Assembly: GCA_036172245.1 (NCBI GenBank)
Contig: JAYWIR010000155.1
Span: 1-58,395 of the forward strand
DNA: 58,395 bases
DNA from: Raillietiella orientalis
Taxonomy: Eukaryota
Direction of reading: 5' to 3'
Of this stretch, positions 7,161 through 56,524 are shown one piece after another. Below the pieces are notes generated by a model. The model searched no databases, had not been told where the DNA came from, and saw only the letters and a program-made list of their open reading frames with translations. The position numbers and the translations under genes were made by a program. Position 1 is the first letter of the stretch. Each line of letters opens with the position of its first letter.

Positions 7161-9437
7161 CTGACCTAGACGCGAAGCGAATAGCCCGACAAGCAAATTG
7201 GCGTCCGTATTCACAAAAGTTATCAGACGCCAGTTGTTCAGATTTCTGAGATCTCCTCCTTTCGAAAGAAGCGTCACTCTGGCTGTCGGAAAGGAGGCGG
7301 GAACATCGCATTCGTCTCCGATCAGCCTGATCAACTTAAGCAGCAAGGGTTCCAGCTTTTCTGCGAAGCTCTAAAAGAACTCCGCGGGCAAGCCGTCTTC
7401 CCCAGGAGCTTTCCACCTCTTGAGCCTTTTGATACCGGGGAGAATTTCTACGGTGTTAAGATGCTCGTCGAGGCTTAACGATTATTCCTCCTTCGTTATC
7501 GAAGCATCAAACGGAAGAAAGCGTCGAGAGGCATCTTGATCTGAGGGCGCCGTGGAGTAAAGGGAATTATAATCACCACGCACGAGATTAAGTTCCGACG
7601 CCGGAGACGGACATTTCTTGCCGTGGCCGTCCAGAAAGCTGTTCAATACGGATTGCCATGCTTAAAGTTCGGGCCCGGCTCGGTAGTGGTCCAGGCGACG
7701 GACATCAGGGGTTCTCTCTTTCTGACGGGCCTGTCAATAGACTCGATGGTTGCAAGGACCATCGTCGAACCCTGGAGGCAGGCGTCCCAGAGAAAACTGC
7801 TCGCAGAACTCCCGGATCGAGGCCTTAAACAGGTCTTAACCCTCGAATACCGGGCCGAAGGTTGCAAGGGCCCTCGAGAAATCCCGGGGGCGGGCGGTTA
7901 AAGCGAACTGCTCGCAGAACATCCGGACGGAGGCCTTAAAAAGGTTTCAATTCCAAAGACTCTTGAGCGTGACGCCTTTCAGGAATTCATGAAGGTGTTC
8001 CTATGCTGCTGAGAGTCGCGTTCAGTCCCCCGGCACACGACACTCCCTGGATGGAGGTCTGTTGTTGCGAAACCTCATCTCGAAATTTAGCCGGGAATGG
8101 TCCGACAGCGTCGACGCGATCTTCCCCCGTTTGCCGGCCCGTGAACACAAGTGAGCGTCCAGGAAGACGTGGACGATGTTGCGGACAATTCTTTCACCTG
8201 CAAACAGGTTCAGCACACGCATGGCGCCGCAGAACTCGTTCATCGCGTTCTCTTGTGTTTCATGTTCACCAGTTCGCAGTCGAAGATTGAGAACTCCTGT
8301 TATCAGGTGAGCCTTTCGCACGTTCGTGTTCGCCACACAGTCGCGTTCCAGGGATTCAAGCAGCCTGGTACGGTTGCTATATCCCTTTTGACCGGTATGG
8401 GCGTACACATTCGTGAAGATCAGATGGATCGAGACGGAGCAGCCGAAAATCAGCTGAGCAACCCGATCGACGTCATCGAAGCGCACGCCTTTCACGGCAG
8501 CGTCGATGGCTGGCTTGACGAAGAACGCGACTGCGCAGGTGTTGCGGAGGCCGCATTGCCGGTACATCCCACCCCCCGCGATCGACTTGATCTCCTGGAC
8601 GTCTGCCGCGAAGATCACGTGGATCTCCTGCAGCCGGTCAGGTTGAGTTCATGCAAAGTGTCGGCTGTACCTCGCCTGTTACCGTCGTCGCGCACCCCGT
8701 TGACATTCCAACAGGCCGCGCGGATCCGACGGCGACTGGCGAGCCCACGTTGTACTCCGGGAAAAGTGGCAGTCCGGCGTCCGCCACCTACCAGGGCAAG
8801 ATGCTAGGTGGAGGAGGAGGGTCAGGTGGTGAAGGCACATAATCCCCCTCCTGCATGGGTAACAGCGCGCCGAGCGCTGTTACCGATGCAGGTGGGGTCG
8901 CACCTATCTGTTGACCCTCCTTAATGGAGGCGGGCTGTTCAGGGTCGGCGACTGCAGGGAGGACTTTACCTACCTGCTCACCCTTCACCATGGGGTGGCC
9001 TTCTCGACAACTTCGGAACGTTGGAATTCCTCCTTTGGGGTTCCCACGCTGGCGACGGCTTCCGTGTCCTCCTCCTCGCTGGAGGAGGGGAAGCACCTCC
9101 TGGGCTTCTGGGACTTGCGTTGCGACTTTCTAGGGGGTGCCTTGGAGGAGGAGGAGCTGCTTCCGGCATCTAGGATTAACTCACCTGAAGAGGCCTTCTT
9201 TGCAGGATCCGGCTTTCGTACGGCCTTGCGCGAGGGGTTCTCCCGCTCGGCCAGCGTCACCGCGAGCTCCTGTGCCGCCTCTGCCAATGCGACGTCCTCT
9301 ACTTCGAAGAACGCGTCGCGCAGCTCACCCTCTGTGTAAACCGGAGGTTCGCAGTCGCGAGCCTTGGGCGCAGCGGAAACGGCGAGGGGAGGCTCGTCGC
9401 TCCAGGTGGCAGCCTCGGGAACGGCGATGCGTTCGAT
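7155..9437 (-). mobile_element. Copy B2 internal fragment: ORF1 C-terminus (9437-8755), APE and RT N-terminus (8750-7155), degenerate
   Basis: ORFs 8985-9443, 8022-8618 (APE) and 6696-7346 (KGGDLRNLNNWRLIT). Confidence 0.85.
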
Positions 9438-29866: not shown

Positions 29867-31177
29867 TGGAGAGAGGACGTGCTTCTCCTGCGCTGCGCCT
29901 GCGTGGCAAGGCGAGTAGTTTTTTTCTTGAGTGGTTTGTGCGTGCACATCGTCGGTGTCCGATAGCAGCGTTGCCAGAGGATATCTCGATGGAAGTAGGC
30001 ATGAGAGAGGCTTGTTCGTCCCCACAGCCTACTGGATTAGGAGCATCCGCCCCGGAATCGTTCGGCAACGCCGAGGTCATCGAGCGCCATGGCGGCCGCG
30101 TCTAGCGTGGAAGCCATGGCCGAGATGGAAGCCTATTAGAAAGCGGGGTATAAAGCCTCGCTAGTCTACAAGGTAGGCAACCTTTTCGATGGGCGAAATG
30201 CACGCGCCTTTACAAAGGCGCTGCAGAACGCCAATATCTTCGAAAAAGATCTTGACGGCCTCTGCGTCCTCAGCGGCGGGCAGCGGGTCGAGGTGGTATG
30301 CAAGGATATCAGCTTGGCACGACGCCTGATCACCGACCCGCTAATCTTTGATGGTCGGAAGATCTTGCCGGTGACGATGGACCGCTCGGTGGTGGCCCAT
30401 CTCACTGGGATCTCCAATCGCATGACTAGGTCAGCGGATCGCGAACAGTTGCAAAAGCACGCAGAAGTGAACGCGTTGTGGCCGAAGTCCACGATTTTCC
30501 AAGGCTACAATAGCCTTTTCGGAGGTCAAGCTGCGGCGCGTATCACCGCAAAAGAGGGTAATGCGCTTCCCCACAAGCTGTAGGTCTGCCAAGAAGCGGT
30601 GGACCTCTGGTAAGTGAGGAAACGCCAATTTTGTGGCTACTGCAATGCAGTAGGGCATCTACGAAAAAGGTGCCCAAACATTGTGTGCCACCTATGCGGC
30701 GAAAAGGGTCACGTTCGGCGCGTGTGCCCCAAACGACTCACCCCGGTGCCCCCTGCCGCCAAAAAGACGCAGGGAGAACGTGGAAAGCTGGTAGAAAGAC
30801 CAGCTCGCGAAAATGGCCGTTCCCAACAGCCAGCCTCCCTTCCTCCAGTACAGACGTCGGAGAAAGGAGCACCCGTGAACGCGGAAATAAACGAGGGTTG
30901 GCAGCTGGTTCACGCCAGAAAAGAAAAAAAAAAGAAAGTGATGCCAGAAGAAAAGTCGGAGAAGAAAACTGCCGGCAACAAGAAAAAAGCCGCGCCCCTT
31001 TCAAAAAAAAAACAACTTCGCGAATGCTCGGTGGCACTGGAACGCTTAGCCGTTTCTGTCGAGGCCGCCCGAGGCAATGTTCAGCAAACAGCTGATACTG
31101 AAGCGATGAATACTCGCGTGGACGAGCCCATTCTACGTTTAGAGGGTGAGACGCGTGACTCGCGCGCCGACAGCCAG

Positions 31178-31348
31178 GATGCCGCGCTCGATAAAGTCGC
31201 GGAGGTGCCCGCGGCAACGTTCGCCGTCAACGATGACGCCCTGCTCGATAAGGTCGCGGAGCAGCCCGCGGCAACGTTCGCCGCTGGCGAAGACGCGGCC
31301 TTCGAGAAAGCGGCGAAGCAGCTCGCAGCAACGATCGCCGAGCGCGAA
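31178..31348 (+). repeat. Three in-frame 57-bp (19-aa) tandem repeats in B4 ORF1
   Basis: DAALDKVAEVPAATFAVND / DALLDKVAEQPAATFAAGE / DAAFEKAAKQLAATIAERE. Confidence 0.9.
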
Positions 31349-32305
31349 ACCTCGTCGCGCAAGGGCGTACGCAGGTCGGCTCCGACGAAGAAGGCCCCCG
31401 CAGGTAAGTGCGACCTGGGGGCAGGAAGCGCATCCTCCTCCTCGAACACACGCTCCAGGAAGTCGGGACGCAAGTTCCAGAAACCCAGGAGGCGCCTCCC
31501 CTCGAACAGCGAGAAGGAGAAGCCGGGAAGAAGCGGCAGCGTGGGAATCCTGGAAGGGGGACACCCAACGCCAGGCAGCCGCCGAGTCGGCCACCCCCAT
31601 GGAGGAGGGTGAGCAGGGGAGTGGAGTACTCTTTGCAGTCGCGGAACCTGAGCAGCCCTAACCCTTGGAGGAGGGCGAACAGGTAGGCGCGACTCCACCT
31701 GCAGGTGATCCGGCCGACGCGCCGGTACCGATGGAGGAGGAGGAACAGGTGCCTTCAGTACCTGTCCCCCCTCCCCCTCCACCTAGCGTCCTGCTTCAGC
31801 AGGTAACGGACGCCGCATCGCCGTTTTCGCTGGACTAACACCTGGGCTCGCCAGTCGCCGTGGGATTCGCGCGACCTGTTGGAACGTCAACGGGCTGCGC
31901 GACGACGGCAACAGGCGAGATACAGCCGACAGCCTGCGTGAGCTCGACCTGGCGCTGCTGCAGGAGAATTACGTGATCGCCGCGGCAGACGCCCAGGAAA
32001 TCGAGACGATCCCGGGGTGTCGGTTGTATTGGCGATGCGGCCTCCGCAACACCTGCGGGGTCGCGTTCTTCGTGAAGCCGGCCATCGACGCTGCCGTAAA
32101 GGGCGCGCGGTTTGATGACGACGGTCGGATCGGTCAGCTGATTCTCAGCTGGTCCGACACGATCGACCTTATCGTCACAAACGTGTATGCCCCTGCGTCA
32201 AACAGGGGTACCGCGACCGCATTAGGCTGCTGGAAACCCTGAAGCGCGACTGGCTGGCGGATACCAATGTGCGAAAGGCTCACCTGATAGCGGGAGATTT
32301 CAATC

Positions 32306-32330
32306 GAGTGTGGACGTGTTTTTCTTCGCT
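32306..32330 (+). promoter_or_regulatory. Conserved element 5' motif GGACGTGTTTT (representative copy), putative internal promoter element
   Basis: Present within ~12 nt of 13 5' junctions across groups A, B and C. Function is inferred. Confidence 0.5.
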
Positions 32331-32383
32331 CTCGACACCGTGCATTCATCCGCTTCATCTTGGCGTCGTACATTTTGACGACG

Positions 32384-34306
32384 ATGTCGACCCAACTTGA
32401 AGCTACTGAAGTTGGAGGAACAGCATCCGGATCTGCAATCGCGGAACCGACGGCCGCCTACACTTCGCCTTTCTCGCGAATGGAGAGAAGTTTTGCTGAC
32501 GTTGCTGCCACAGCAGCCGTCAAAGGGAAACCACTCGACGAGTCGGAGTTGCGGGCGTACGTAGCCCAAGGCTATAGACCTGCTCTCCGATATAAGGTGA
32601 GTGGTTTTCTTTCTGCGCGCGACGGGAATCAGTTCAACGATGAACTGACCCGTGTTGGCGTGCGGGAGAAGAACCTTCTCGCCATTATGCCCGTAGAAGA
32701 CATGGGCTATTTCAAGGTGCGTTACAAAGACGCTTCACTTGTGCAACGCTTGCTGCGCACCCCGTTGTCGATCCGTGGCCAGAAGGTCTTCCCGGCCGCC
32801 ATGGACCACTCATTTGTGGTGCAGATTTTCGACATCGAGTCGGAAATCTCCGATACTGATATTCGGAACGCGTTGGCGAAATTCGCCACGGTCCATGCGC
32901 TGTGGAGGGTGCGTAGCAACCTCAAGGACTTCCCGTCCATACACAGCGGAGTCGCTGGAATCCGGCTTACAATGCCGGAGCGCCGTCTGCTGACCACCAA
33001 ACTACAGGTGAAAGACACAGTCGTTCACCTGTGGTTCGTGGGCAAAGTAAAAACGTGCGAGCAGTGCGGGAAGGAGGGGCATTGTTTGGATAAATGCCCC
33101 TCTGGAAAATGCCGTTATTGCAAACTATCCGGGCACCAATTGAAAAATTGCCCGGATCTTTTGCGAAAAAAGGCAGCCGCGGAGCTCCATTTTAAAAAAC
33201 AAAGCGCGGATAAAAAGAAAAAATCTGCGAAAAACCTGGAGACCCCACGGCAGAAATTCAGTAAAAACGCGAGGCGGAATGTCGCCCCAAAGCAGCAGGA
33301 AACCTCGCACGCGAAGCCCTGCGCACCCCCTCTCGCAGCAGGGGAGCCGCAAAAGAAAGGTTGCGGGGAATCCGAAGCAATGGTAAGTCCCCCTAGGCGC
33401 AATAGCTGTCCTTCCCAAGCACGCCCGGCTCTCTCGGAGTTCGAGCAACCGGCGGGGACGCCAATGGACAACGACGGAAACGACACTTCCAGTACCGTCA
33501 GATCCATTCCTTCACCTCCTGCAGTGGCTGAGAAGCCCAAATCGGGTAAGAAGGGTTGTTACGTGTCGACTTCGAAAGTCGGCAAAAAAAACTCCGCGTC
33601 GCGATCCAACACCGCGGAAGCGGAGAAAAATCTCACGCCGTCGCAGTCGGAGAGCAAGCTCTCGACTGGCGCGGATGCCATGCCAACGAAGGGATTAAAA
33701 GCCCTTCCGAAAGCAGCGTCCATGACGAGCGTGTCGGAGCCATCGAAAGTGCTCCCGTCCAAAGACGCGGATGGCTTCAAAGATGGCCATGGAGCACAAT
33801 CTTTATTTACGGCGCCACGCGAAGTGAGGAACCGTAATGAAGTAAAGAAGACTTCAGCAAAGGTCCCTCGTGCAACTGCGCGTGAGCACGCTGAAAACGC
33901 GCGCGCCGGGAAAGCAGCCGTCACCAAAAGCGATGCTCTGGTGACGGAAAACGAAAACAGGACAGCTGTCAATCCAGCAGAACCTGTCACTGCTTCGCGG
34001 AAGGCCGAAACCCGATCGGACATGCGCCGGTCGGACTCCGAAATGGATGCCGTTCCGATCACCGAGACGAGGACAACTCGTTCGAAAGCGTGTGCGCGCC
34101 GATCAAAAGTAGGCAGCCAGGCAACGCTCGCCGCGAAGCAACGCGAAGTCTCCACGAAACCCGACGGGGTTCAGCCTGGTGTGGAGGCATTACATGCATG
34201 AAGCACGACAGAGGACGGTGGCGACCGTCCCCTCCAGCTAGTCGTGCTGCTCGCCGTCTGCTCGCCGCATAAAGCGAGCAAAAAGCCGCCACCTTCCCAG
34301 CAGTAA
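32384..34306 (+). pseudogene. C1 ORF1 zinc-knuckle protein; open to 34201, where TGA replaces the TGC seen in C2
   Basis: CEQCGKEGHCLDKC and CRYCKLSGHQLKNC knuckles, long K/S/A-rich tail. TAATG at 34304-34308. Confidence 0.88.
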
Positions 34307-37300
34307 TGCGGGGAATCGCGTCTTCTCGTCGTCTGTCCGTAACGTGTTGGAACGTGAACGGACTGCAGAACGACGAGAAGAGGCGATTAGTAGCCAACGC
34401 CCTGCGCCCCTTCGACCTCGCGCTGCTGCAGGAGATTCACGTAATCTCCGACGAGCAGGCAGCCGAAATCGAGGAGCACGCAGGCGGAACGCTACATTGG
34501 CGGTGCGGCGGCGCACACACGTGCCGCGTCGCGTTCCTCGTAAGAGGGAAAATGGCAGAAGCGGTGCGTAGTGTTCGTTTCGATGACAACGGAAGGATAG
34601 GCCAGCTTGTCATCAAGTGGTCCGAGTCCATCGATCTCGTCGTTACGAACGTCTACGCGCCAAGTGGCTCTCGCTACCTCGAAGAAAGAGTAGCTTTCTT
34701 TGGTGAAGTGCAGAGCCAGTGGCTCAACAACTCCGGCTTCCAAGTGGCGCACCTCTTCGCTGGGGACTTCAACGTCCGCCTGCTCTCCGACGATTAAAGC
34801 CGCCCGAGGGAGCGCGCGCTGCCCATCGAGATGTGCGCGTCCGTGCACGCCGCCAACTTGATGGTCTGCGAACCTGGAATGGAAAGATCGCTCGATCACG
34901 TTTTCCTCGATGAAAACCTGCATTCGCGTGTGGGTAGGAGAGGAAGATTGTTGACTGAGCTTTCTGACCACCACAGGTTGGAGTTTGAGATCCTTCCGCC
35001 AGGCAGGGGGCCTCCGTTGCAAAGCTGGAGGATGCAGGCGGATTGGCTTAGCCAACCGGAAGCTGCGGAGCATCTACGTGGATACCTCCGGGGCTTTGCC
35101 ATTCAAGAACTTGCGGACTGGGACGATCTCAAAAGATCTGTCCGCGAGTTCTGTTGCCAATTCCCCTTGCACCGGCTTCCACGCGGTTTCGGAGAGGGCG
35201 TGGCCAACAGTAGAGACTTTCTGCAGGCCCGCACGTTTTCGAGACGCGCGGATGTCGGGCGTCTCGCAGAGTACAAGGCGAGGGCCGAGCGCCACGTCTG
35301 GCAGTCCGGAGCAGCATACCTGTTGGACGACAAGGGCCAGGAATGTTCGGCCCCAGCCGAAGTACGCCGCATTGTGAGACGCTACTACTCCTCGCTCTAC
35401 GCGGAATCCCCGACGGAGGATATTCTTTCTGAGATACTCCTGTCTCAGGATGCTCGTGTTGTCGGCGAGGAGGACCGCGAACGTCTCGACGAGCCCTTCA
35501 CGGCGGATGAATTTTCGTCCGCCATCGCTGGGCTGAAGAGACGGAAGGCGCCAGGCGAGGATGGGCTCCCTGCAGAGTTTTATCAGTGCTTTGCAGTGGA
35601 GCTAATTCCATTGATGCTTAAACTCGCGACGCTGATGAGTGAATCCGGGAATGTCCCTGATTCCTTCCGCTCAGCGAAGGTGCGTCTCCTGCCGAAAGGC
35701 GGAGACTTGCGCCAACTTAACAACTGGCGTGCGATCACCTTGGTGAACTCGGACGTCAAGTTGTTTTCCATGCTGTGGGTCGCGCGGTTAGGAAGAATCG
35801 CGGAATCTGTGGTGAGCCCGGAACAAACCTACGCGATTCCGGGACGATCCATGGAGGCGAACATCGTTTTCGCGCGTACATGGATGCAGCTGCAGGAAGT
35901 TGTGGCGCAGCAAAGCCAGGCTGCTGCGAAAGTCACTGCCGCAGGCAAAAAGAACAGGCGCCGACGGCGGGAGGGAACGCCAGGTGCCTTGGCGGTCGCG
36001 GTCTATCTCCACAAGGCGTTCGACTACGTAAACCAGAAGCTGCTTTTGGAGCTTATGGAACGCCTTGGGTTCCCAAAGCAACTCCTGCTGTATTTGCGCG
36101 CGTGCTGACGCCACGCGCTAACCTGCATCACTTTCAGCGGCTGCCGCGTGTATGGTATTCCCGTTCGTGGGGGCATCCGACAGGGCGACAGCTTAAGCCC
36201 GTTGCTCTTCAGCATCTTCTTTGAGTTGGTGCTAAGAGCATACAGGCTGACGCTGTCTCACTTGCCAAGCTCATCCCCGGTAACGCCTGCCGTGGCTGCC
36301 TACGCTGATGACCTGCTTCTTCTGCTCCCCATGTCCACCCCGGCGTCCAGTGTCGAGGATTTCTTCAACCTGATTCGTCGGGGAGCGGGCGTGAGCGTGA
36401 ACAGAGAGAAGAGCGTGGTCGTTCCTGTGGGTACGTCGTGGGAGGGGCAGTCCGACTGGATCCGCCTGGGGATCCCCACGGGCGTGTACTTTAAGTACCT
36501 TGGCGTTCCGTTGAGCGCTTTCGGCGCAGCCGAAGCGTGGGCGGACTGTCTTCAGAAAGCAGAGTTGGCCATCAGCCCGTTCTTTAACGGCAAGTTTACC
36601 TTGCAGGAACGGGCGACTATTTGGAACACCTTTGTGGCCCCCCTCCTCCGTCCCCTGTTTTTTGTTTTGGACCCCCCCTATGCGGCAAAACAGCGGGCTA
36701 AGCGCCTGCTCATAACGCTCTCTGGGGTCCGACGAGATCCAATATCCGCCTTAAAGATTTGTCAGCTCCGCGTCGGGATGCTGGTTTGGGTATCCTGACA
36801 ATGGAGCGAATCGGACTGCAGGTGCAGTTCCGACTGCTGGCATTGTGTGCCCAGCTATGGACATCCCCTGTGTGTGTGCCAGCTCGCATTCTCCTGCGAA
36901 GATGCGCCGGCAGCGGAGGATTTCTCTCGCTTTTGCTGGGCACTCAATACAGGAAGCGGGGTTTCGGTTTCCCATTGCGGCAGTTGACCGCACTTCTGGA
37001 AGCACACTCTTGGATCTCCTGCCGCCCAATGAACTTTGAAGCTTGGCGGCAGGAGTCTGTTGAATCCTGGACGGCGTTCCAAGGAATACGCCCTGAAGAT
37101 CTTCGCCCCCTGCGCCAATTTTTTCCACGATCCTTGGAAGAAGTACTGCAGGACGAGGTGAAGTTTTCTACACTGGCTGCCACGCCTCTTGCCGCAGCGC
37201 TGTCTGCCCTCAGGGCAAGAAACGACAGTTACCAACCGGCGAGGTGGGAGGTTTCCTGCACGATAGCGGGAAGAACCAAACTCCTTGGCACCTGGAAGAC

Positions 37301-37898
37301 AAGTGAGTTGGCGGACGCAGCCACTCCTCGTGTTACTGCAAAGGGACTCCTCCGGTGGGCAGAAGAACTTGCTGTCACCCCCGAAGAACTTGTAGTCCCT
37401 CCACAGTGTATGGACAGTTCGCTGCTCCCCCTTGCTTGGAAACAAGCCGTGCTGCTTTTCGTTCACTGGGGTTTTCATTGCAACGAGCGTTGGCATCGTG
37501 ACTCCGGGGGACTTGCGTCTGCGAACTGCGTTCGGTGCGGATCGACGGAGTCGATTCCCCACCTACTTCTGGACTGCGGTGTCCTACAAGGACTGTGGCG
37601 TAGGCTGGCAACAGCACTATTGCATCATGTGGACACCGCAAGAGACTTGCTGCGACGATTTTTCACGCCGAGCGGGCTTTCACTAAGCGCAAGGATTGCA
37701 ACCAAGGGTTGCATACGCGCGATAGTTTCCTTTCGCCAGGCGTTGGTAATCGACGGACAGCACCAAGAGGTAATCAGCAAAGCATCCTTCTACATGGGAG
37801 CATCCGCTAGATGGCCTCATTTGACAGAGGAGACAAAGAGGAATCTCGCCGCAATACACCGCCGGATTACACACCCTCAGCAGCGGCCAACCCGGTGA
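34306..37898 (+). pseudogene. C1 ORF2 (APE-RT-zinc finger), two stops and a frameshift
   Basis: ORFs 34306-34797, 34831-36108, 36148-36798 (YADD) and 36759-37898 (CVRCGSTESIPHLLLDC). Confidence 0.92.
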
Positions 37899-38181
37899 TC
37901 ATTGCCCTACCCTCCATAAACTAAATTTGTATTTTCTTTTCACACCCGCGTCCCCATAGGCTCCGGAACATTTTAGATGCTCATCGTATTAATCCCCGTG
38001 AGTACGGAGCCTAACCAAAAACCCGTTACCCTTCCCTCCAGTTTTTGATTTTTGTTTGTTTCCCCTCATTCCCCCCACGCTGCGAGCGGTTTGTTTACCA
38101 GGCCTGCGTGCCGGTAATTTTTCTATATTCTCTGTCGTTCTCTTGGTTGAAAACATTGTCCCTGACCAGTTTATTATTATT

Positions 38182-38211
38182 AATAAACGCCCCGGCGTGA
38201 CCGGGTGATAA
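38182..38211 (+). terminator. Conserved element 3' terminus: AATAAA followed by a CCCGG-N5-CCGGG hairpin and a 2-4 nt A tail (representative copy)
   Basis: Ten recognisable copies occur at element ends. A role in 3'-end formation or RT recognition is inferred, not shown. Confidence 0.6.
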
Positions 38212-38220
38212 ATTTCAATC

Positions 38221-41200
38221 GAGTGGGGACGTGTTTTTCTTTGCTCTCGTCTCCGTGCTTTCATCCGCTTCATCTTGGCGTCGTACATTTTGACGACGAT
38301 GTCGACCCAACTTGAAGCTACTGAAGTTGGAGGAACAGCATCCGGATCTGCAATCGCGTAACCTACGGCCGCCTCCACTTCGTCTTTCTCGCCAATTTAG
38401 AGTTTTGCTGACGTTGCTGCCACAGCAGCCGTCAAAGGGAAACCACTCGACGAGTCATGGTTGCAGGCATACGTAGCCCAACACTATAGACCTGCTCTCC
38501 GATATAAGGTGAGTGGTTTTCTTTCTGCGCGCGACGGGAATCAGTTCTACGATGAACTGACCCGTGTTGGAGTGCGGGTAGAGGACCTTCTCGCCATTAT
38601 GCCCGTAAATGACATGGGCTATTTCAAGGTGCGGTGCAAAGACGCTGCACTTGTGCAAAGCTTGCTGCGCACCCCGTTGTCGATCCGTGGCCAGAAGGTC
38701 TTCCTGGCCGCCATGTACGACTCATTTGTGGCGGAGAATTTCGACATTGAGTCGGAAATCTCCGATATTGATATTCGGAACGCGTTGACGTAATTCGCCA
38801 CGGTCCATGCGCTGTGGAGGGTGCGTAGCAGCCTCAAGGACTTCCCGTCCATACACAGCGGAGTCGCTGGAGTCCGGCTTACAATGCCTGACCGCCGTCT
38901 GCTGCCCACCAAACTACAGGTGAAAGACACGGTCGTTCACCTGCGGTTCGTAGGCAAAGTAAGAACGTGCGAGCAATGAGAAAAGGAGGGGCATTGTTAG
39001 GATAAATGCTTTTCTGGGAAATGCCGTTATTGCAAACTGACCAGGCACCAATTGAACAATTGCCCGGATCTTTTGCGAAGAAAGGCAGCCGCAGAGCTCG
39101 ATCTTAAAAAACAAAACGCGGATAAAAAGAAAAAATCTGCGAGAAACCTGGAGATTCCACGGCAGAAATTCCGAAAAAACGCGAGGCGGAATGTCGCCCC
39201 AAAGCAGCAGGAAACCTCGCAAGCGAAGCCCGGCGCGCCCCCTCTCGCGGCAGGGAAGCCGCAAAAGAAAGGGTGCGGGGAATCCGGGGCAATGGTAAGT
39301 CCCCCTAGGCGCAATAGCTGTCCTTCATAAGCACACTCAGCTCTTTCGGAGTTTTAGTAACCGGCGGGGACGTCAATCGACAACGGAGGTAAGGACACTT
39401 CCAGTACCGTCAGATTCATTCCTCCACCTCCTGCAGTGGCTGAGAAGCACAAATCGGGTAAGAAGGGTTATGCCGTGTCGACTTTGAAAGTCGGCAAAGA
39501 AAAATCCGCGTCGAGATCCAACACCGCGAAAGCGGAGAAAAATCTCATGCCTTCGCAGTCGGATAGCAAGCTCTCGACTGGCGCGGATGCCATGCCAACG
39601 AAGGGATTAGAAGCCCTTCCGAAGGCACGGTCCATGACGAGCGTGTCGGAGCTATCGAAACTGCTCCAGTTTAAAGACGCGGATGGCTTCAAAGATGGCA
39701 ATGGAGCACAATCTCCATTTATGGCACCACGCGAAGTGAGCAACCGTTATGAAGAAAAGAAGATTTCAGCAAAGGTCCCTCGTGCAGCTGCGCGTGAGCA
39801 CGCTGAGAACACGCGCGTCGGAAAAGCAGCCGTCACCAAAAGCGTTGCTCTGGAGACGGAGAAATACAACAGGACAGCCGGAAATCCAGCAGAACCTGTC
39901 ACTACTTCGCGGAAGGCCAAAACCCGATCGAACCTGCGCCGGTCGGACTCCGAAATGGATGCCGTTCCGATCACCGAGACGAGGACAACTCGTTCCAAAG
40001 CGTGTGCGCGCCGATCAAAAGTAGGCAGCCAGGCAACGCTAGCCGCGAGGCCACGCGAAGTCTCCACGAAACCCGACGGGGTTAAGCCCGGCGTGGAGGC
40101 ATTACATGCATGCAGCACGACAGAGGACGGTGGCAACCGTCCCCTCCAGCCAGTCGTGCTGCTCGCCGTCTGCTCGCCGGATAAAGCGAGCAAAAAGCCG
40201 CCACCTTCCCAGGAGTAATGCTGGGAATCGCGTCTTCGCGTCTTCTGTCCGTAACGTGTTGGAACGTGAACGGACTACAGAACGACGAGAAGAGGCGATT
40301 AGTAGCCAACGCCCTGCGCCCCTTCGACCTCCCGCTCCTGCAGGAGATTCACGTACTCTCCGACGACAAGGCAGTTGAAATCGAGGAGCGCGCAGGCGGA
40401 ACGCTACATTGGAGGTACGGCGGCGCACACACGTGCGGCGTCGCGTTTCTCGTAAGAGGAGAAATGGCGGAAGCGGTGCGTAGTGTTCGTTTCGATGACG
40501 ACGGACGGATAAACCAGCTTGTCTTCAAGTGGTCCGATTCCATCGATCTCATCGTTACAAACGTCTACGCGCCCAGTGGCTCTCGCTACCTCGAAGAAGG
40601 AGTAGCTTTGTTTGGTGAGGTGCAGAGACACTGCCTCAACAACTCCGGCTTCCAAGTGGCGCACCTCGTCGCTGGGGACTTCAACGTCCGCCTCCTCTCC
40701 GACGATTGGAGCCGCCCGAGGGAGCGAGCGCTGCCCATCTAGATGTGCGCGTCCGTGCACGCCGCCAACTTGATGGTCAGCGAACCTGGAATGGAAGGAT
40801 CGCTCAATCACGTATTCCTCGATGGAAACCTGCATTCGCGTGTGGGTAGCAGAGGAAGATTGTTATATAGGCTTTCCGACCACCACAGGTTGAAGTTTGA
40901 AATCCTTCCCCCAGGCAGGGGGCCTCCGTTGCAGAACTGAAGGATGCGGGCGGATAAGCATAGCCAACCGGAGGCTGCGGAGCATCTACTTGGATACCTC
41001 CGAGGCTTTGCCATTCAAGAACTTGCGGACTGGGACGATCTCAAGAGATCTGTCCGCGAGTTCTGCTGCTAATTCCCCTTGCACCGGCTTCCACGCGGAT
41101 TCGGAGAGGGCGTGGCCAACAGCAGAGACTTTCTGCAGGCCCGCACGTTTTCGAGACGCGCGGATGTCGGGCGTCTCGCAGAGTACAAGGGGAGGGCCGA

Positions 41201-44123
41201 GCGCCAGGTCTGGCAGTTCGGAGCAGCATGCCTGTTCGAAGACAAGGGCCAGGAATGTTCGGCCCCAGCCGAAGTACGCCGCATTGTGAGACTCTACTAC
41301 TCCTCGCTGTACGCGAAATCCCCGACGAAGGATATTCTCTCTGAGATACTCCTGTCTCAGGATGCTCGTGTTTTCGGCGAGGAGGAACGCGAACGTCTCA
41401 ACGAGCCCTTCAGGGCGGATGAATTTTCGTCCGCAATCGCTGGGCTGAAGAGACGAAAGGCGCCAGGCGAGGATGGACTCCCTGCATAGTTTTATCAGTG
41501 CTTTGCAGTGGAGCTCATTTCCTTGATGCTGAAACTCGCGACGCTGATCAGTGAATCCGGGAATGTCCCGGATTCCTTCCGCTCAGCGAAGGTGGGTCTC
41601 CTGCCGAAAGGCGGAGACTTGCGTCAACTTAACATTTGGCGTCCGATCACCTTGGTGAACTCGGACTTAAAGTTGTTTTCCAAGCTGTGGGTCGCGCGGC
41701 TAGGAAGTATCGCGGAATCTGTGGTGAGTCCGGAACAAACTTACGCGGTTCCGGGACGATCCATGGAGGCGAACATCCTTTTCGCGCGTACATCGATGCG
41801 GCTGCAGGAACTTGTGGCGCAGCAAAGCCATGCTGCTGCGAGAGTCACTGCCGCAGGCAAGAAGAACAGGCGCCGACGGCAGGAGGGAACGCCAGGTGCC
41901 TTGGCGGTCGCGGTCTATCTCCACAAGGCGTTCGACTGCGTAAACCAGAAGCTGCTTTTGGAGCTTATGGAACGCCTCGGGTTCCCAAAGCAACTCCTGC
42001 TGTATTTGAGCGCGTGCTGGCGCCACGCGCTAACCTGCATTACTTTCAGCCGCTGCCGCGTGTATGGTATTTCCGTTCGTAGGGGCATCCGACAAGGCGA
42101 CATCTTAAGCCCGTTGCTCTTCAGCATTTTCTTTGAGTTGGTGCTAAGAGCATACAGGCTGACGCTGTCTCACTTGCCAAGCTCATCCCCGGTAACGCCT
42201 GCCGTGGCTGCCTACGCTGATGACCTGCTTCTCATGCTCCCCATGTCCACAAAGGGGTCAAGTGTCGAGGATTTCTTCGACCTGATTCGTCGGGGAGCGG
42301 GCGTTAGCGTGAACAGAGAGAAGAGCGTGGTCGTTCCTGTGGGTACGTCGTGGGAGCGGCAGTCCGACTGGATTGGCCTGGAGATCGCCACGGGCGGGTA
42401 CTTTAAGTACCTTCGCGTTCCGTTGAGCGCTTTCGGCGTAGCCGAAGCGTGAGCGGACTGTCTTCAGAAAGCAGAGTTGGCCATCAACCCGTTCTTTAAC
42501 GGCAAGTTTACCTTGCAGGAACGGGCGACTTTTTGGAACACCTTTGTGGCCCCCCTCCTCCGTCCCCTGTTTTTTGTTTTGGACCCTTCTATGCGGCAAA
42601 ACAGCAGGCTAAACGCCTGCTTAGTAACGCTTTGTGAAGTACTGCGAGATCCAGGATCCGCCTTAAAGATTTGTAAGCTCCGCGTCGGGATCCTGGTTTG
42701 GGTATGTTGACAATGGAGCGAATCGGACTGCAGGTGCAGTTCCTACTGTTGGCACTGTGTGCCCTGCTATGGACATCCCCTTTGTGTATGTCAGCCCGCA
42801 TTCTCCTACGGAGATGCGCCGGCAGCGGAGGATTTCTCTCGCTTTTGCCGTGCACTCATTACAGGAAGAGGGGTTTCGGGATTCCATCGCGGCAGTTGAC
42901 CGCACTTCTGGAAGCACACTCGTGGATCTCCTGCCGCCCAATGAACTTTGAAGCTGGGCGGCAGGAGTCTGTTGAATCCTGAACGGCGTTCCAATAAATA
43001 CGCCCTGAAGATCTTTGCCCCCCGCGCCAATTTTTTCCACGATCCTTGGAAGAGGTACTGCAGGACGAGAGTAGGTTTTCTACCCTGGCTGCCACGCCTC
43101 TTGCCGCAGCGCTGTCTGTTTTCAGGGCAAGAAACGACAGTAACCAACCGGCGAGGTGGAAGGTTGCCTGCACGATAGCGGGAAAAACTAAAATCCTTGG
43201 CGCCTGGAAGACGAGTGAGTTGGCGGACGCCGCCACTCCTCGTGTTAATGCAAAGGGACCCCTCCGGTGGGCAGAAGAACTTGCTGTCACCCCCGAAGAA
43301 CCTGTAGTCCCTTCACAGTGTATTGACAGTTCGCTGCAGCCCCTTGCTTGGAAACAAGCCGTGCTGCTTTTCGTTCATTCGGGTTTTTAGTGCAACGAGC
43401 GTTGGCATTGTGACTCCGGGGAACTTGCGTCTGCGATCTGCGTTCGGTGCGGATCGACGGAGTTGATTCCGCACCTACTTCTGGACTGCGGTGTACTACA
43501 AGGACTGTGGAGTAGGCTGGCAACAGCACTAATGCATCCCGTGGACACCGCAAGAAACTTGCTGGGACGATTCTTCACGCCGAGCGGGATGTCACTAAGC
43601 GCAAGGATTGCAACCATCGGTTGCATACGCGCGATAATTTCCGTTAGCGAGGCGTTAGTAATTAACGGACAGCACCAAGAGGTAATCAGCAGAGCATCCT
43701 TCTTCATGGAAGCATCCGCTAGATGGCCTCATTCGACAGAGGAGACAAAAAGGAATCTCGCCGCAATACACCGCCGGTTTACACACCATCAGCAGCGTCC
43801 AACCCGGTGATCATTGCCCTACCCTCCATAAACTAATTTTGTATTTTCTTTTTACACCCGTGTCCCCATAGTCTCCGGAATATTTTAGGTGCTTATCGTT
43901 TAAATCTCCGTGAGTACGGAGCCTAACCAAAAACCCGTTACCCTTCCCTCCAGTTTTTGATTTTTGTTTGTTTCCCCTCATTCTCCCCACGTTGCGAGCA
44001 GTTTGTTTACCAGGCCTGCGTGCCGGTAATTTTTCTATGTTCTCTGTCGTTCTGTTGGTTAAGGACATTGTCCTTGACCAGTTTAATATTATTAATATAC
44101 GCCCCGGCGTGACCGGGTGATAA
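38221..44123 (+). mobile_element. Full-length copy C2, head-to-tail with C1 and more degenerate
   Basis: Colinear with C1 at an offset of ~5915 bp. ORF1 38299-40218 and ORF2 40218-43810 carry many stops. Followed by ATTCCAATC at 44124-44132. Confidence 0.95.
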
Positions 44124-45375
44124 ATTCCAATCTCCGCCTGCTAACAGGTGAGCCTGAAACACAAGAGAACGCGATGAACGAGTTGTGCGCCGCCATGCGT
44201 GCGCGCAACTTGTTCGCGGGTCAGAAGGGAATGGTCCACAGCATCGACCACGTCTTCCTCGACGCTGACCTGTGTTCACGGCTCGGGAAACGGGAGAGGG
44301 TTGCCTCGACGCTGTCGGACCATTCCCGGCTAATTTTCGAGTTGAGGCCTCGCGACAAAGGACCGCCATCCAGGGAATGGCGTGTCATCGGGGACTGAAC
44401 GCGCCTTTTAGGTGCACAGGTACACCTTCGTGAATACATGAGATGCGTCACGCACCGGAATTTGCAGGACTGCGACCTTTTTAAGGAATCGGCCCGCGAG
44501 TTCCGCGAGCAGTTCCCCCTGGATCGCCTGCCCCCCGGATTTCGCGAGGGTGCTTGCAACCATTGAGCCTATTTACAGGCTCGTAAGTACGAGAGAACCC
44601 CTAATGTCCGTCGCTTGGCCGAGTACCGCGCTGGGGCCGAACGCTTAACCTGGCAATCCGGGTCGGCCAGCTTGCTGGACAACCAGGGCCTGGAATGTTC
44701 GTCCCCGACGTCGGTACGGCATCTCGTGAGAAGATTTTACTCATGCCTCTGCGCCAGGACGCCTCCGGACCAAGATGCCTCTCGGCGCTTGTTCCCGGAT
44801 GGTGCCCCGGCAATAGGGGAAGAGGAGTCGGTCAGCCTCGACGAGCCTTCCACTACCGGCGAAATTCTCGTTGGTATCAGAAGGCTCAAGAAACGTAAGG
44901 CGTCATTGGAGGACGGCTTGCCCGCGGAGCTCTTTCAGTGCTTTGCGGAAGAGCTTGCCCCTCTGCTGCACTTGTTGACAAGACTGAACCGATACGAAGG
45001 CGATGTTCCCGCCTCGTTTCGGTCAGCCAGTGTGAGGCTCCTACCGTCAGGGGGAGACCTCAGGAAATTGCACAACTGGCGTCGGATGACCATCATGAAC
45101 ACGGACGCCAAGTTGCTAGCAGGGATATGGGCTTCGCGTTTAGGGCAGGAGGCAGAGTCCACAATTAGCCAACACAGACCTATGCTGTTCCAGGGCGAAG
45201 TATGGATGCCAACCTCTTATTCGCAAGCACGTGGATGCACCTGCAAAGGAGAGAAAAGAAAGGAAAAGGGAAAATTGGCAACCCCACATTGGGGCCGCCA
45301 GCATGCCTGGGAAGGGATCCCGGCGCGGGGAAGGTATCCCTAGCGTTCGCAGTCGATTTCCATAAGGCGTTTGAT

Positions 45376-46343
45376 TTTCACCCGGATTTCGCCGGGGCGT
45401 TTATTGTAAAATAAACTTTTACAAAGACATGAGGTGGCTGGACCAATGCTCCAGCCACGCACGAAGAAACACAGAGCCTGCCGGGTCACCGGTTCTCAGA
45501 ACGGTACGGTCCACCACGGCAGCGGGGGAAAGGGGAAAAACAAAAAACAAAACAAAAAAGAAAAGAAAAGTAGGGAGGGTAAGGGAAGGGATCACAGTTG
45601 CTGGTGGGGCCGTTGCAAACTTTGCAGTATGCCGGCAAGCTCCTTCTGTATTCCTGGATCCAGGTTGGGCCATCGGGACGCCCTCCTCAGGAACTGGGAG
45701 GCTGGCTGGATGGCACCCTGGTCGGGTTGTCCTTCCGTAGCCTTGCTCCAAGCGGTGACGATCCCGCGTAGGCAGCACAAAGCTGCTAACGAGACCGGTG
45801 GCCGAAGAGCGTCGGCAACGAAGAGGGCTTTCAGTGCGTTCCTGGGGTTGCCGCAGGGGATTCCGATGTCCGCGGCAAAGCAGAACCAAAGGGGTTGAAG
45901 GGCAACACAATCCACTAGCAGGTAGAGGAGGGACTCCCGTTCCCCAAACCTGACGCAATTGGGGTCCACCGCTCCCCAGGTCCAGTGGTGCCGGCGGGCG
46001 TTGCAGGGGAGTTTCGAGTGCTGCAACAGGAGAGCCGACTCCTGCCATTTTAAGGGGAGGGCGGAAGTGTTCATGAACACCGGGGGCCACTTCAGATGTT
46101 CAATGGGAACATCGAGCAGCGCGCCCCAGCGCAGAAGTCCATTGGGAGGCGTAATCGGGGTCGCAGCGCCTGTTAACTGCCCGTCTTTCACTCTCCTATC
46201 TTCTTCTCCTTTCCCGAGATTGTTACTGTATCCACCCACTTCGCCGCAACATCGCTGTCCAGATCTTCCATCAGGGAGGGCAGCGCAGCAGCGAGGGGGG
46301 TTCTTCCTGCCCACGCTCTCTTCTTTGGATCCTCCAGGATCTC
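45376..46343 (-). mobile_element. A1-type 3' portion (ORF2 C-terminus, 3' UTR, hairpin terminus)
   Basis: ORF 45592-46314 (HHWTWGAVDPNCVR). The terminus AATAAACGCCCCGGCGAAATCCGGGTGAAA abuts the B4 HKAFD codons. Confidence 0.9.
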
Positions 46344-46700
46344 CCGCACGCCAACACGGGTCAGTTCATCGTTGAACTGATTCCCGTCGCGCGCAGAAAG
46401 AAAACCACTCACCTTATATCGGAGAGCAGGTCTATAGCCTTGGGCTACGTATGCCCGCAACTCCGACTCGTCGAGTGGTTTCCCTTTGACGGCTGCTGTG
46501 GCAGCAACGTCAGCAAAACTCTTAATTGACGAGAAAGACGAAGTGGAGGCGGCCGTAGGTTCCGCGATTGCAGATCCGGATGCTGTTCCTCCAACTTCAG
46601 TAGCTTCAAGTTGGGTCGACATCGTCGTCAAAATGTACGACGCCAAGATGAAGCGGATGAAAGCACGGAGACGAGAGCGAAGAAAAACACGTCCGCACTC
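46344..46700 (-). mobile_element. Copy C3: 5' end and start of ORF1 only
   Basis: Near-identical to C1 32306-32668 (MSTQLEATEVGG...VGVRE). Fused to the A1-type 3' portion. Confidence 0.9.
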
Positions 46701-49011
46701 GATTGAAATCTCCCGCTATCAGGTGAGCCTTTCGCAGGCTCGTGTTCGCCAGCCAGTCGCGCTTCAGGGATTCAAGCAGCCGATTACGGTTGCTGTATCC
46801 CTTTTGACCGGTTGGGGCGTACACATTCGTGACGATCAGATCGATCGAGTCAGCCCAGCCGAGAATCAGCTGACCGACCTGACCGTCGTCATCGAAGCGC
46901 ACGCCCTTTACGGCAGCGTCGATGACCGGCTTCACGAAGAACGCGACCCCGCAGGTGTTGCGGAGGCCGCATCGCCAATACAACCGACACCCCGGGATCG
47001 TGTCGATCTCCTGGACGTCTGCCGCGGTGATCACGTGGATCTCCTGCAACAGGGCCAGGTCGAACTTTCGCAGGGTGTCGGCTGTATCTCGCCTGTTACC
47101 GTCGTCGCGCAGCCCGTTGACATTCCAACATGCAGCGCGAATCCGACGGCAACTGGCGTGCCCAGGTGTTAGTCCTGGGAAAACGGCGATGCTGCGTCCG
47201 ACACCTGCTGGGGCGCGACGCTAGGTGGAGGAGGAGGGGGGTCAGGTGCTGAAGGCACCTGGTCCCCCTCCTCCATCGGTGCCGGCGCGTCAGCCGGATC
47301 ACCCGCACGTAGAGTCGCGCCTACCTGTTCGCCCTCCTCCATGGGGGCGGGCTGTTCAGGGTCGGCGCCTGCAGGGGACACTTCACCTTCCTGTTCACCC
47401 TCCCCCATGGGGGAGGCCGGATCGACGGCTTCCGAGCGTGGGAATTCCTCCTCCGAATTTCCCACGCTGGCGACGGCTTCCGTCTTCTCCTCCTCGCTGG
47501 TGGAGGGGAGGCGCCTCCAGGGCTTCTGGGACTTGCGTCCCGACTTCCTGAAGGGTGCCTCCGAGGAGGAGGATGTGCTTCCGGCCCCTAGGTCTAACTC
47601 ACCTGTGGGGGCCTTCTTCGCCGGAGCCGGCCTTCGCACGGCCTTGTGCGAGGGGTTCTCATGCTTGGCCAGCGTGACCGCGAGCTCCTCCGCCGCCTGC
47701 GCGAACGCGGCGTCCGCGGCTTCTACCGCCGCTATGTCGCGCGGCTCACCCTCTGTGTAAACAGAGGGTTCGCCGTCGCGAGCCTCGGGCGCAGCGGAAA
47801 CGGCAAGGGGAGCATCGACGCTCCGGGTGGCAATCTCGGGAACGACGATTCGTTCCAGTGCCAGCGTGCACTCGCGCAGAGTTTTCGAGCGTGGACCGGG
47901 TGTTTTCGGCTTACCGGCCGTGTTGCGCTCTTTGCTCTCAGCAAGTGGAAGTTTCCTTGGCTTTCTGGCCTCTACAAGCTGCCATCCCTCTTCGCCTTTC
48001 ACCGTTTCAGAAGTTTTATCCTCCGGCTTACGCGCCGGAGGTTGAGGTGTTGGCAGCTTGTGCTGGCCCTTTTCTACTTAAGGTCCAGAGACCTTTGAAG
48101 CACGTTTCCCCTGCGCTTTTTTCGCGGCAGGGAGAACCTGTGTGGGGCATTTGGGACACACGCGCCGAATGTGGCCCCGCTCCCCGCACAAATGGAATTG
48201 TATATTGGGACACCTTTTACATAGGTGTCCCACGGTATCACAATGCCCGCAATACCAGGGCTTCCCTACATTCCACAGGTCGACGTTTTCTTGCGCCACC
48301 TGTAGTTTGTGAGAAAGCCCACAGTTCTCCCGTACGGTGACCCGCGCTGCAGCCTGCCCACCCAAAAGGCTATCGAAGCCGTCGAAAATGGAGGGTTTCG
48401 GCCATAGTGCGTGCACCTCACCGTACCTTCTTAATTCCTCACCAACCGCTGACAGCATCATGCGGCTGGTAATGCCAGTCATGTGGACCACCACGGAGCG
48501 GTCCATTGATACTGGCAGGATCTTGCGGCCGTCTACGTTCAGCGGCGCATGGATTAGGCGGTGAGCCGAGGTGACATCTTTGCAGACCACCTCGACCCGC
48601 TGCCCGCCGCTGAGGACGGAGAGGCCGTCCAGATCCTTCTCGGTAACATTCGCGGCCTTCAACGCTTTGCTGAAGGCGCGCGCTGTCCGGCCGTCGAACG
48701 AGTTGCCTACCTGGTAGACAAGCGATGGCTTGTACCCGGAGGCCTTGTATGCTGCCATCTCCGCCAAGGCTTTTGCACTGGGCGCGGCCACCATGGCGCT
48801 CGATGTCCTCGGCGTGGCCGGGGATGATTCCGGGGCGGCTGCCCCTGCTCCAGTAGGCTGTGGGGGCGAACTAGTCTCCCCCACTCCCACCTCCATCGCG
48901 GTGTCCTCTGGCGTCGTGGCTATTAGACACCGACGATGTACACAAAACACCGCACACAAGAAAGCGCTTTCCTACTACCCTTTAAGGAGTGAAGGAAAAA
49001 CACGTCCTCCA
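46701..49011 (-). mobile_element. Copy B5: 5' UTR, ORF1 and APE up to AGDFN
   Basis: GGACGTG at 49007-49001. ORFs 48078-48959, 47169-48002 and 46606-47049. Confidence 0.9.
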
Positions 49012-54407: not shown

Positions 54408-56524
54408 TTTACAACCGGATGTGCGGGGCATTTATTTCTTTGAAATGAAAATACATGAAATGTCGCGTGGCGAACTCGAAGGTTCTTTACTCCAATACAG
54501 CTTGCTGGTTACCGGCTTCATGCCGGAGACGTCCTTTCGACGCGCGGGGATGAGAAATAAAGAAAAACAAAAAGAAACAAAAAGTTCAATTGTGGGGGGG
54601 AACAAATGTTGTAGGGATGGGAGGGCGGGGAAGGGATCACGGTGCGCGTGGACAGGTCATCTAGATCCTATTCAGGATCCGCACGAGCTCAGTCCTTTCA
54701 GCGCCTAAGTGGCGCTACTTGCAGACACTGCGTGCGAAAAGGCGAGTCCATCGTAAGGCGCTGCCAGTTGGCTGACGTCTTCTTCTGGTGGCGTTCCGAG
54801 CCGCCACGATCCCTCAAATGCAGCAGAGGATTGCTACAGAAGCGGGGTAGGACAGGGCGTCACTACAGAAGAGGCGCCTGCAAACGTCCTTGATGCCGCA
54901 TCCGCGCAAGTCCAGGATCGTCGTTAGGCGATCCATAAAGGGCTGATGGAACTGCATCCAATGAGAAGGTGGGGAAAGGTCTCTTTTTCCCCGCCCCGGT
55001 CGCACTGGGGATCCACAGCCCCCCCGGGTGGTTTGGTACAGGCGTGGTTTACAGGGTAAACCCCAATGCATTACAAGCAACGCCACCTCCTGCCATTTGA
55101 GGGGGAAGGACCCACTGTTCCAGGACGCTGGGGGTCACTTCATCTCCTCCGGAGATATTCCGAGTAGCACGCTTCAGCGTGGAATTCCGTTGGGCGGGAC
55201 ACTCAACGTTGCAGCGTCAGCTAGCTGCCGAGATGTCCACCTCTTTATCGATTGTGTCCTGCCACCTATGGTGCAGGACACGGTCCATTTCTTTTGCTCG
55301 CTACTGTCCCTGGCACTCACAAGGAAGGGCAGCACTGGAGCGAGAAAGGGTTATCAAGGCCCACAGCAGCTTCTCGTGGGACTGCACGATCTCCTGCAGC
55401 GTCCAGCGAGCATGCCTTTTCAGGCAAGTGTTCCTTGTTCCCGCCGGAACGTGGATCTTCTCCCAGGTGGAGACTGACTCGTACAACCAGGCAGAGTAGT
55501 TCCCTGGATGGCAGCAGATCCAGGCGTTTTCCCGGACCGCAACGAAGATGCGTCGCAGCATAGAGCCACAGTGTGCTCTACTGCAGACGCGCGCAGACAG
55601 AAATGACAAAAGTCCGCCGGATCCGCAGGCTCGTTTGGCCAGGAGGCGTGCTGGAACGCAACAAGGCGTGTTCCACAGTTCTGCCGCGAGAGCGAGAGTC
55701 CTAAACTGTAGTTGCACTTCCATGCGCTACAGCGTAAGAACGCCAAGTCCTCCGTCCTTACGTGGAGCGCACAAGTCTTTGAGCCTCACACGGGACCTCC
55801 CTTTGCCCCAAAGGACTGTCCTCAGGAGGCCCGCTGCTCGTTTACGGATGAAGTAAGGGACGGGGCACACAAAAAGTAGGGGGCGAAGAAGGGGGGCCGC
55901 AAACGCGTTCCACACCGCGGCCCGTTCCTGCAAGTAAAGCTTGCTTTCTTGGAACGGACCGGTCGCCAACGCTGCCTTTTGGAGACGGTCGGACCAGGCT
56001 TCTGCTGCGCAGAATTCCCCCATCGGAACGCCTAGGTACTTGGAGCACCTGTCCGTGGGGATCCCCAAGCGGATCCAATCCGACCGTCCAGCCCACGCCG
56101 AGCCGGTACAAGTTATGGACGACTTCGCCCTGTTCACCTCCAGGCCCGTCCCGCGGCGCAGCAACTCGAAGAATACCTCGAGCGCACTCGCCAGGGTGGA
56201 CCCGGGAAGCAGCAGCAGAAGATCGTCTGCATAGGCCGACACGGCAGGCGTGCCGGCACACGAGCTCGGCAGGGTTGCCAGAGTTACCCTGTATGCCCTC
56301 AGCACAAACTCGAAGTACATGCTACAGAGCAAGGGGCACAGGATGTCAGCTTGCCGGATGCCGCGGCGCACTGGCACGCCGCACACGTGTCGGCCGCTGA
56401 AACCAATATTTATGTACGCGTTGCGCCAGCAGGAGCGCAGGTAAGACTGGAGAAAGGACAAGAAACCCAGGCGTTCCAGGAGCTTTAGATAGAGATCCTG
56501 GTCGACGCAGTCGAACGCCTTGTG
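54408..56524 (-). mobile_element. Copy D2: ORF2 from HKAFD to the 3' terminus
   Basis: ORF 55727-56857 includes HKAFDCVDQ...YADD...KYLG. Terminus AATAAATGCCCCGCACATCCGGTTGTAAA at 54436-54408. Confidence 0.9.

Follow-up and report, generated by a model that had tools for sequence, protein, structure and literature searches.

Head-to-tail L1-like retrotransposons in the endonuclease codons of another LINE: probable successive insertion at a regenerated target site

The contig JAYWIR010000155.1 of Raillietiella orientalis (assembly GCA_036172245.1) was analysed over a stretch of 58,395 nucleotides (nt; positions 1 to 58,395 of the forward strand), referred to below as the window, and was found to carry two full-length retrotransposons lodged one behind the other within a third. 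The two elements, C1 and C2, are members of one family, here named C; they are L1-like retrotransposons without long terminal repeats (non-LTR retrotransposons), arranged head to tail, and they lie in the GDFN codons of the endonuclease of a host long interspersed nuclear element (LINE), H1. It is probable that C2 inserted first and that C1 later entered the regenerated upstream target of the same specific site. An earlier note on this DNA had likewise taken C1 for a later re-insertion at the target upstream of C2, and the present analysis supports it, since the two copies share no disabling lesion, carry lesion loads of 3 and 19, and sit on branches of unequal length. Because loads and branches are unequal and no lesion is common to both, two insertions are favoured, with C2 as the older copy and C1 as the younger.

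The two units and their junctions could be delimited to the base. C1 occupies positions 32306-38211 (+ strand, 5906 nt) and C2 positions 38221-44123 (+ strand, 5903 nt). Their end-to-end alignment contained 5472 matches, 430 mismatches and indels of 3, 1 and 1 nt, i.e., an overall identity of 92.7%, which ranged from 90.2 to 95.6% per 500 nt. The mismatches comprise 226 transitions and 204 transversions, in about equal number; it is to be noted that they show a G/C to A/T bias, while CpG decay is not prominent (29 vs 23 sites). Each of the three edges of the pair is occupied by a copy of a 9-mer on the + strand, and all three copies were found exactly where the earlier note had placed them: ATTTCAATC at 32297-32305, within the host codons GAT TTC AAT, the same ATTTCAATC at 38212-38220, between the 3' end of C1 and the 5' end of C2, and ATTCCAATC, with one T>C change, at 44124-44132. 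The claim that the host peptide AGDFNLRLL is regained when C1 and C2 are removed was also borne out by direct reading of the frame, GCG GGA GAT TTC AAT C|TC CGC CTG CTA. By itself, the 9-mer is not an uncommon sequence: with up to one mismatch allowed, ATTTCAATC was matched 11 times where 8.7 were expected, and this number was attained by 27 of 100 shuffles. The significance of the 9-mers is their placement exactly at the three edges of two 5.9-kb units, not their rarity.

The host element is split by the pair into two parts. The upstream part (29867-32296, + strand) includes an open reading frame (ORF), ORF1, with a CCHC knuckle, followed by the N-terminal portion of the apurinic/apyrimidinic endonuclease (APE), up to the GDFN codons; Pfam recognised zf-CCHC in 30614-31609 and Exo_endo_phos in 31787-32239. 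The 5' limit of this part is approximate, and from 29867 on it resembles H-like copies weakly. The downstream part (44133-45272, + strand) holds the remaining endonuclease and the start of the reverse transcriptase (RT), is broken off by another element near 45340-45370, and is homologous to the RT regions of other families as well as to H3 (44128-44561 vs 8289-7860). H3, a third copy of the host family (9434..7860, - strand), is uninterrupted, has homology to both flanks of H1, and offers the empty site. The upstream flank of H1 matches H3 down to position 8285 and the downstream flank matches it from position 8293, an overlap of exactly 9 base pairs (bp), and the 9-mer is therefore a true 9-bp target-site duplication (TSD). 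An intact related endonuclease in the window found its best match in human L1 (E 7e-6), with its GDFN aligned to the GDFN of the L1 endonuclease. The Asp and Asn of this motif are catalytic in APE endonucleases.

The difference in decay between the two copies is large. C2 had been described in the earlier note as having visibly more stops than C1, and this was indeed so, with 18 premature stops in C2 (8 in ORF1 and 10 in ORF2) against two in C1 (TAA at 34795 and TGA at 36106, in the ancestral frames); in addition, the stop codon of ORF1 in C2 now reads TGC. Each copy has also suffered one frameshift. In C1, a G is absent after 36713 that is present in C2 and in a contig of X1, the only public sequencing run with the stretch (share 0.54; no RNA run was listed). 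In C2, one nt is deleted at 42582-42583, in the codon matching 36670. Since the X1 contig carries the G that is missing from C1 and is free of the C2 deletion, each frameshift is private to its copy. In the earlier note, a mostly common set of disabling mutations had been named as the sign of duplication after insertion; when shared and private ones were counted, none of the 20 stops and neither of the two frameshifts was common. The disabling lesions thus amount to 3 in C1 and 19 in C2, with 0 of 22 in common (binomial p 8.6e-4). Twenty stops among 399 coding differences fit neutral decay, in which 3.7-4.0% of random substitutions create a stop, and of these 20 only 2 fell on C1.

Polarisation of the differences between C1 and C2 gave a similar picture. 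With paralogous families from the window as outgroup and C1 as query, the outgroup agreed with C1 at 119 sites and with C2 at 35 (29 ties); with C2 as query, it agreed with C1 at 87 sites and with C2 at 44 (39 ties; chi2 14.1). The combined count assigned 40 sites to the C1 branch and 117 to the C2 branch (Tajima-type chi2 37.8). When an external protein, P0002, was used as outgroup, the deviating residue was that of C2 in 30 columns and that of C1 in 10 (chi2 10.0). Base composition differs as well: at the differing sites, G or C in C1 faces A or T in C2 212 times and the reverse occurs 124 times (p 1.8e-6), and the G+C content is 54.97% in C2 vs 56.45% in C1. Judged from these sequence comparisons, the C2 branch has gathered about three times more change than the C1 branch. 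As a single duplication would give both copies the same age, this unequal decay disfavours a tandem duplication of equal-aged units.

A third C copy in the window bears on the specificity of the site. C3 (46700-46340, - strand) consists of the 5' 361-364 nt of the element and lies in H2, the second host copy (46701-48963, - strand), for which Pfam reported Exo_endo_phos in 46609-47220 (- strand). C3 adjoins ATTTCAATC (46709..46701) in the GDFN codons of H2, i.e., at the identical site and in the orientation of the host, and its first bases are the same as those of C1 and C2. It is 95.9% identical to C1 and 96.5% to C2, whereas the upstream flanks of H1 and H2 are only 84.4% identical over 1017 nt (31292-32305); C3 is therefore a separate insertion and not part of a copied segment. 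C3 is truncated at ~46340-46346 by another LINE fragment. This fragment, on the same strand (45728-46346), matches 4897-5511 in reverse orientation at 84% identity; the latter stretch forms the 3' part of the LINE ORF2 at 3697-5331. Neither the remainder of C3 nor the downstream half of H2 occurs in the window, which points to a later insertion with deletion, or to a rearrangement, at C3.

Overall, C occupies two of the three H copies in the window and none of the seven other true GDFN sites (2531, 11147, 24421, 34762, 40674, 27535 on the - strand and 14821 on the - strand). The two occupied sites have 36 identical bases, namely the 9-mer and the 27 nt upstream of it. The empty H3 has four mismatches in those 36: two are in the 9-mer itself (8293..8285, TTCTCAATC) and two in the 27 nt to its 5' side, both of the latter in the 8 nt adjoining the 9-mer. 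Run X1 yielded further junctions of this kind, as three contigs pass from the 3' end of C through the 9-mer into a flank that resembles the H1 downstream part (27/30 bases). A 3755-nt X1 contig, whose start lies 30 nt within the host flank, aligns to C1 without gaps and differs from it at 75 positions (98% identity). Two X1 contigs, at 38182 and 38213, resemble C over no more than the final ~30 nt of its 3' end and have unrelated sequence before 38182; they could represent another element, e.g., a non-autonomous one, with a C 3' tail. When metagenomes were scanned for a pattern of 18 bases taken from the 3' end of C, 16 loci came up, which were dismissed as chance, since BLAST of these against C1 returned one 22-nt match and no C copy.

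These findings can be accommodated in a simple scheme. In the established model of target-primed reverse transcription, the bottom strand is nicked first, at the left border of the eventual duplication, and the top strand second, at its right border. C would integrate by this route at the GDFN-coding stretch of the H-family endonuclease gene, with the bottom-strand nick just 5' of ATTTCAATC and the top-strand nick 9 bp downstream, and integration would duplicate the 9-mer, leaving a target copy on either side of the new element. C2 would have entered H1 first. The upstream 9-mer would then have kept the host sequence on its 5' side, while the downstream 9-mer would have had the 3' end of C there. 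At the upstream 9-mer, the integration of a further C RNA, derived from a source copy somewhat unlike the first, would have followed much later, with TSD-C1-TSD-C2-TSD as the result. The position of C1 upstream of C2 is what would be expected if recognition needs upstream host sequence. The order of events, the nick positions, the residence of the specificity in the C endonuclease and the need for sequence upstream of the 9-mer are all points that we infer. The two 9-mers attributed to the second insertion are identical and the single change is in the oldest one, which is weakly consistent with this order.

Several points weigh against two successive insertions at a specific site. First of all, the polarisation used outgroups of 64-77% identity (DNA) and 58% identity (protein) and covered 157 of the 430 differing sites. 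Moreover, C3 can be compared only over the first 363 columns of the alignment, where C1 is the odd one at 9 sites plus the 3-nt indel, C2 at 12 and C3 at 1, and two columns differ in all three copies; the private differences of C1 here are close in number to those of C2, as equal ages would give. This 10:12 split at the 5' end is unlike the 2:18 split of the stops (Fisher p 0.017), and several of the C1 changes cluster with the indel. Both C2 and C3 are without the 3-nt AGA and have neighbouring bases in common where C1 has the other form, and the 3755-nt X1 contig, which aligns gap-free to C1, hence has the same indel state as C1. Given that the 5'-end split departs from the stop split, the 5'-end differences may be read as differences between source lineages, with C2 and C3 of one kind and C1 and the X1 contig of another; so read, they too would agree with two insertions. 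The share of synonymous changes was 17/39 on the C1 branch vs 31/117 on the C2 branch (Fisher p 0.07); this excess on the C1 branch lies in the same direction but was not accepted as evidence, as it is not significant and is biased by outgroup noise at third codon positions.

Some observations also speak against the site specificity or limit its support. At one of the seven unoccupied GDFN sites, which belongs to a related family, the codons (GGTGATTTCAATCTGCGCC) contain ATTTCAATC without a mismatch (14809-14817, - strand), yet the site is empty; its flanks are unlike the H target on both sides. The X1 contig of 98% identity need not be a paralogue of C1 and may instead represent its allele or orthologue. 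Of the five X1 loose ends listed past the C 3' end, two run into unrelated sequence from 'AT' onwards, and the flank that follows the C 3' end in those two contigs (CTCGGCCGCTCCTCCTGCAG / CTCGGCCGCTCC...) had no match in the window. No X1 contig spans a C-to-C junction, although contigs do break at repeats. Finally, the claim of specificity stands on few events, namely C1, C2, C3 and the X1 contigs.

The arrangement could in principle have been reached by other routes. Had C inserted only once and then been duplicated in tandem on the spot, through unequal sister-chromatid exchange or replication slippage between the 9-bp repeats, with independent decay of the two units thereafter, exactly TSD-C-TSD-C-TSD would have resulted, and both the similar amount of private change at the 5' end (9 and an indel in C1, 12 in C2) and the fairly even identity along the pair agree with such a course. 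We nonetheless consider it unlikely. Units of equal age should have gathered like loads of lesions, not 3 and 19 with none in common, and equal branches were rejected by all three relative-rate tests. An exchange within 9 bp only is itself improbable, and if the X1 contig of 98% identity is a paralogue, the nearest relative of C1 lies elsewhere, as C2 is only 92.7% identical to it. It is rather improbable, too, that the dimer arrived in one event, either through a retrotransposed read-through RNA of a C-TSD-C tandem already present elsewhere or with C2 supplied in trans from a dead source. A dimeric RNA would bring the internal 9-mer along, and the unequal decay could then have preceded arrival, so that the insertions at this locus could not be dated by the stop load. 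However, LINEs usually show cis preference, and this route needs either a template of 11.8 kb or mobilisation of a stop-rich copy against that preference; it also presupposes an earlier tandem, which would itself need a double insertion. None of the five X1 loose ends listed past the C 3' end, a listing that left out 80 further loose ends, continues into a C 5' end, with the proviso that contigs break at repeats and so do not inform on tandems elsewhere.

Repeats are also hard to assemble, and X1 cover is almost nil at 38216-38700, so that the pair might be thought an artefact in which one C copy was written twice or two loci were joined. This is very unlikely, because C1 and C2 differ at 430 evenly spread sites and by three indels, the outer junctions meet the two halves of one host element in an exact fit to the empty site, and the inner junction is a clean succession of 3' end, 9-mer and 5' end.

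From its sequence, C is an autonomous, L1-like, APE-type non-LTR retrotransposon. In C1, a 5' untranslated region (UTR) of 78 nt (32306-32383, + strand) precedes an intact ORF1 of 605 amino acids (32384-34201, + strand) and ORF2 (34306-37898, + strand), the latter interrupted by the stops at 34795 and 36106 and the 1-nt deletion after 36713. The 3' UTR of 313 nt ends in ...GGGTGATAA, without poly(A), and this end is the same in C1 and C2. The element is flanked by the 9-bp TSD and has no terminal repeats. In the translation of ORF1, two CX2CX4HX4C (CCHC) knuckles followed by a long tail rich in lysine and serine were noticed by eye; Pfam gave no match to ORF1 at E<=0.01, and a protein search returned no homologue of it among 8000 scored candidates. 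ORF2 has an APE-like endonuclease at the N-terminus and the reverse transcriptase after it. For C1, Pfam found Exo_endo_phos in 34273-34794 (E 1.1e-9) and RVT_1 in 36109-36795 (E 1.3e-8, passing the cut-off) and in 34798-36105 (E 8.5e-5, below the cut-off), and a zf-RVT at the C-terminus of the C ORF2 reached only E 0.0081, also below the cut-off. The best match of ORF2 in the PDB was human L1 ORF2p (E 1.4e-41), with R2 at 1.8e-14. The protein search retrieved one close relative, P0002 (58% identity), the remaining relatives being at most 26% identical, and the protein atlas yielded generic RT clusters only, which carried no taxon or clade. The GDFN codons of C itself, GGGGACTTCAAC, are unlike the target. 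At the 3' ends of C1 and C2 (38187-38211 and 44099-44123), a hairpin CCCGG-CGUGA-CCGGG can be drawn just before the terminal UGAUAA; as a real structure it was rejected, since folds of 120 nt gave z values of -1.0 and -2.4 against shuffles, which is not convincing.

The window as a whole is a closely packed nest of non-LTR retrotransposons of the APE type. A paralogous match elsewhere in the window exists for 88% of its length, its G+C content is 52-61%, and Pfam, applied to 136 long frames other than those of the C pair, recognised an endonuclease in 6 and an RT in 7, on both strands. Other LINE families contribute young repeat pairs of their own, 9-1432 vs 56233-57659 and 4539-5268 vs 20712-19978, with identities of 87% and 90%, and several LINE families have therefore been active in this nest.

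A bolder interpretation, which we hold to be possible but doubtful, is that C is a dedicated parasite of the H family. Its endonuclease would recognise ~30-40 bp around the GDFN codons, which are kept by selection in the host, its transcription would be driven by the host promoter, and the contest would be played out in a LINE-only, possibly centromere-like island, with C arrays as a by-product. If this were true, each insertion would split and kill a host endonuclease, and the 78-nt 5' UTR together with the constant orientation relative to the host would suggest that C may be transcribed from the promoter of the host LINE. R1 and R2 make comparable use of rRNA transcription. Were one LINE to select the active-site codons of a competitor, this would clearly exemplify a mobile element that lives on another and disables it. 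Target-specific LINEs are a natural form of programmable RNA-templated insertion, and a new target would add a case for learning how APE endonucleases read sequence. In addition, a pair formed by C2 and then C1 would indicate that a target regenerated by the TSD can be used again, a proposed first step from a dispersed element to a tandem array, and the insertion of the second element at the upstream copy hints that recognition needs sequence upstream of the 9-mer. It is to be noted that the case stands on few C copies.

Among characterised elements, L1 inserts at loose TTTT/AA-like sites and ends in poly(A), whereas poly(A) is absent from C, which ends in ...GGGTGATAA, and its three copies in the window all lie at one site. 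Human L1 ORF2p (PDB 8sxt, 8uw3, 8c8j; endonuclease 1vyb, 2v0r) is nonetheless the closest solved relative of the C ORF2. In layout, the window is reminiscent of Zepp and ZeppL, L1-type LINEs of green algae that form nested, putatively centromeric clusters (PMC9940879; 10.1101/2025.03.28.645958), since both are dense nests made almost wholly of L1-like LINEs. The window differs in having several LINE families instead of one, and a fixed insertion site is not described for Zepp in the available text of these reports.

As to the site preference of C, parallels exist among APE LINEs with specific targets, those of the Tx1 and R1 clades; transposons are among the targets listed for them (PMC4640811). 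Tx1L, an APE-type LINE of Xenopus laevis, inserts specifically into the Tx1D transposon (PMC1919474). As far as the available account goes, Tx1L resembles C in being a two-ORF APE LINE that enters another mobile element at a single nucleotide position, always in the same orientation and with exact ends; the target of Tx1L is Tx1D sequence, however, while that of C is the catalytic-motif codons in the endonuclease ORF of another LINE. In the literature covered, which did not extend to most subscription journals and the Repbase reports, no LINE was reported to target the endonuclease codons of another LINE. The arrangement of the pair itself has a precedent in tandem dimers of transposable elements that result when a preferred target is entered twice; among them are the R1 arrays of Drosophila, in which the units are parted by duplicated ribosomal DNA (rDNA) target (McGurk & Barbash, 10.1101/158386). 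Such dimers are like the C pair in their head-to-tail order, the full TSD between the units, the strong site preference and the regeneration of the target. Unlike the R1 arrays, the C pair has LINE coding sequence and not rDNA as its target, and its two units are clearly different in age, with no sign of expansion. The kind of event is thus a known one, and its target, the endonuclease codons of another LINE, appears to be new.

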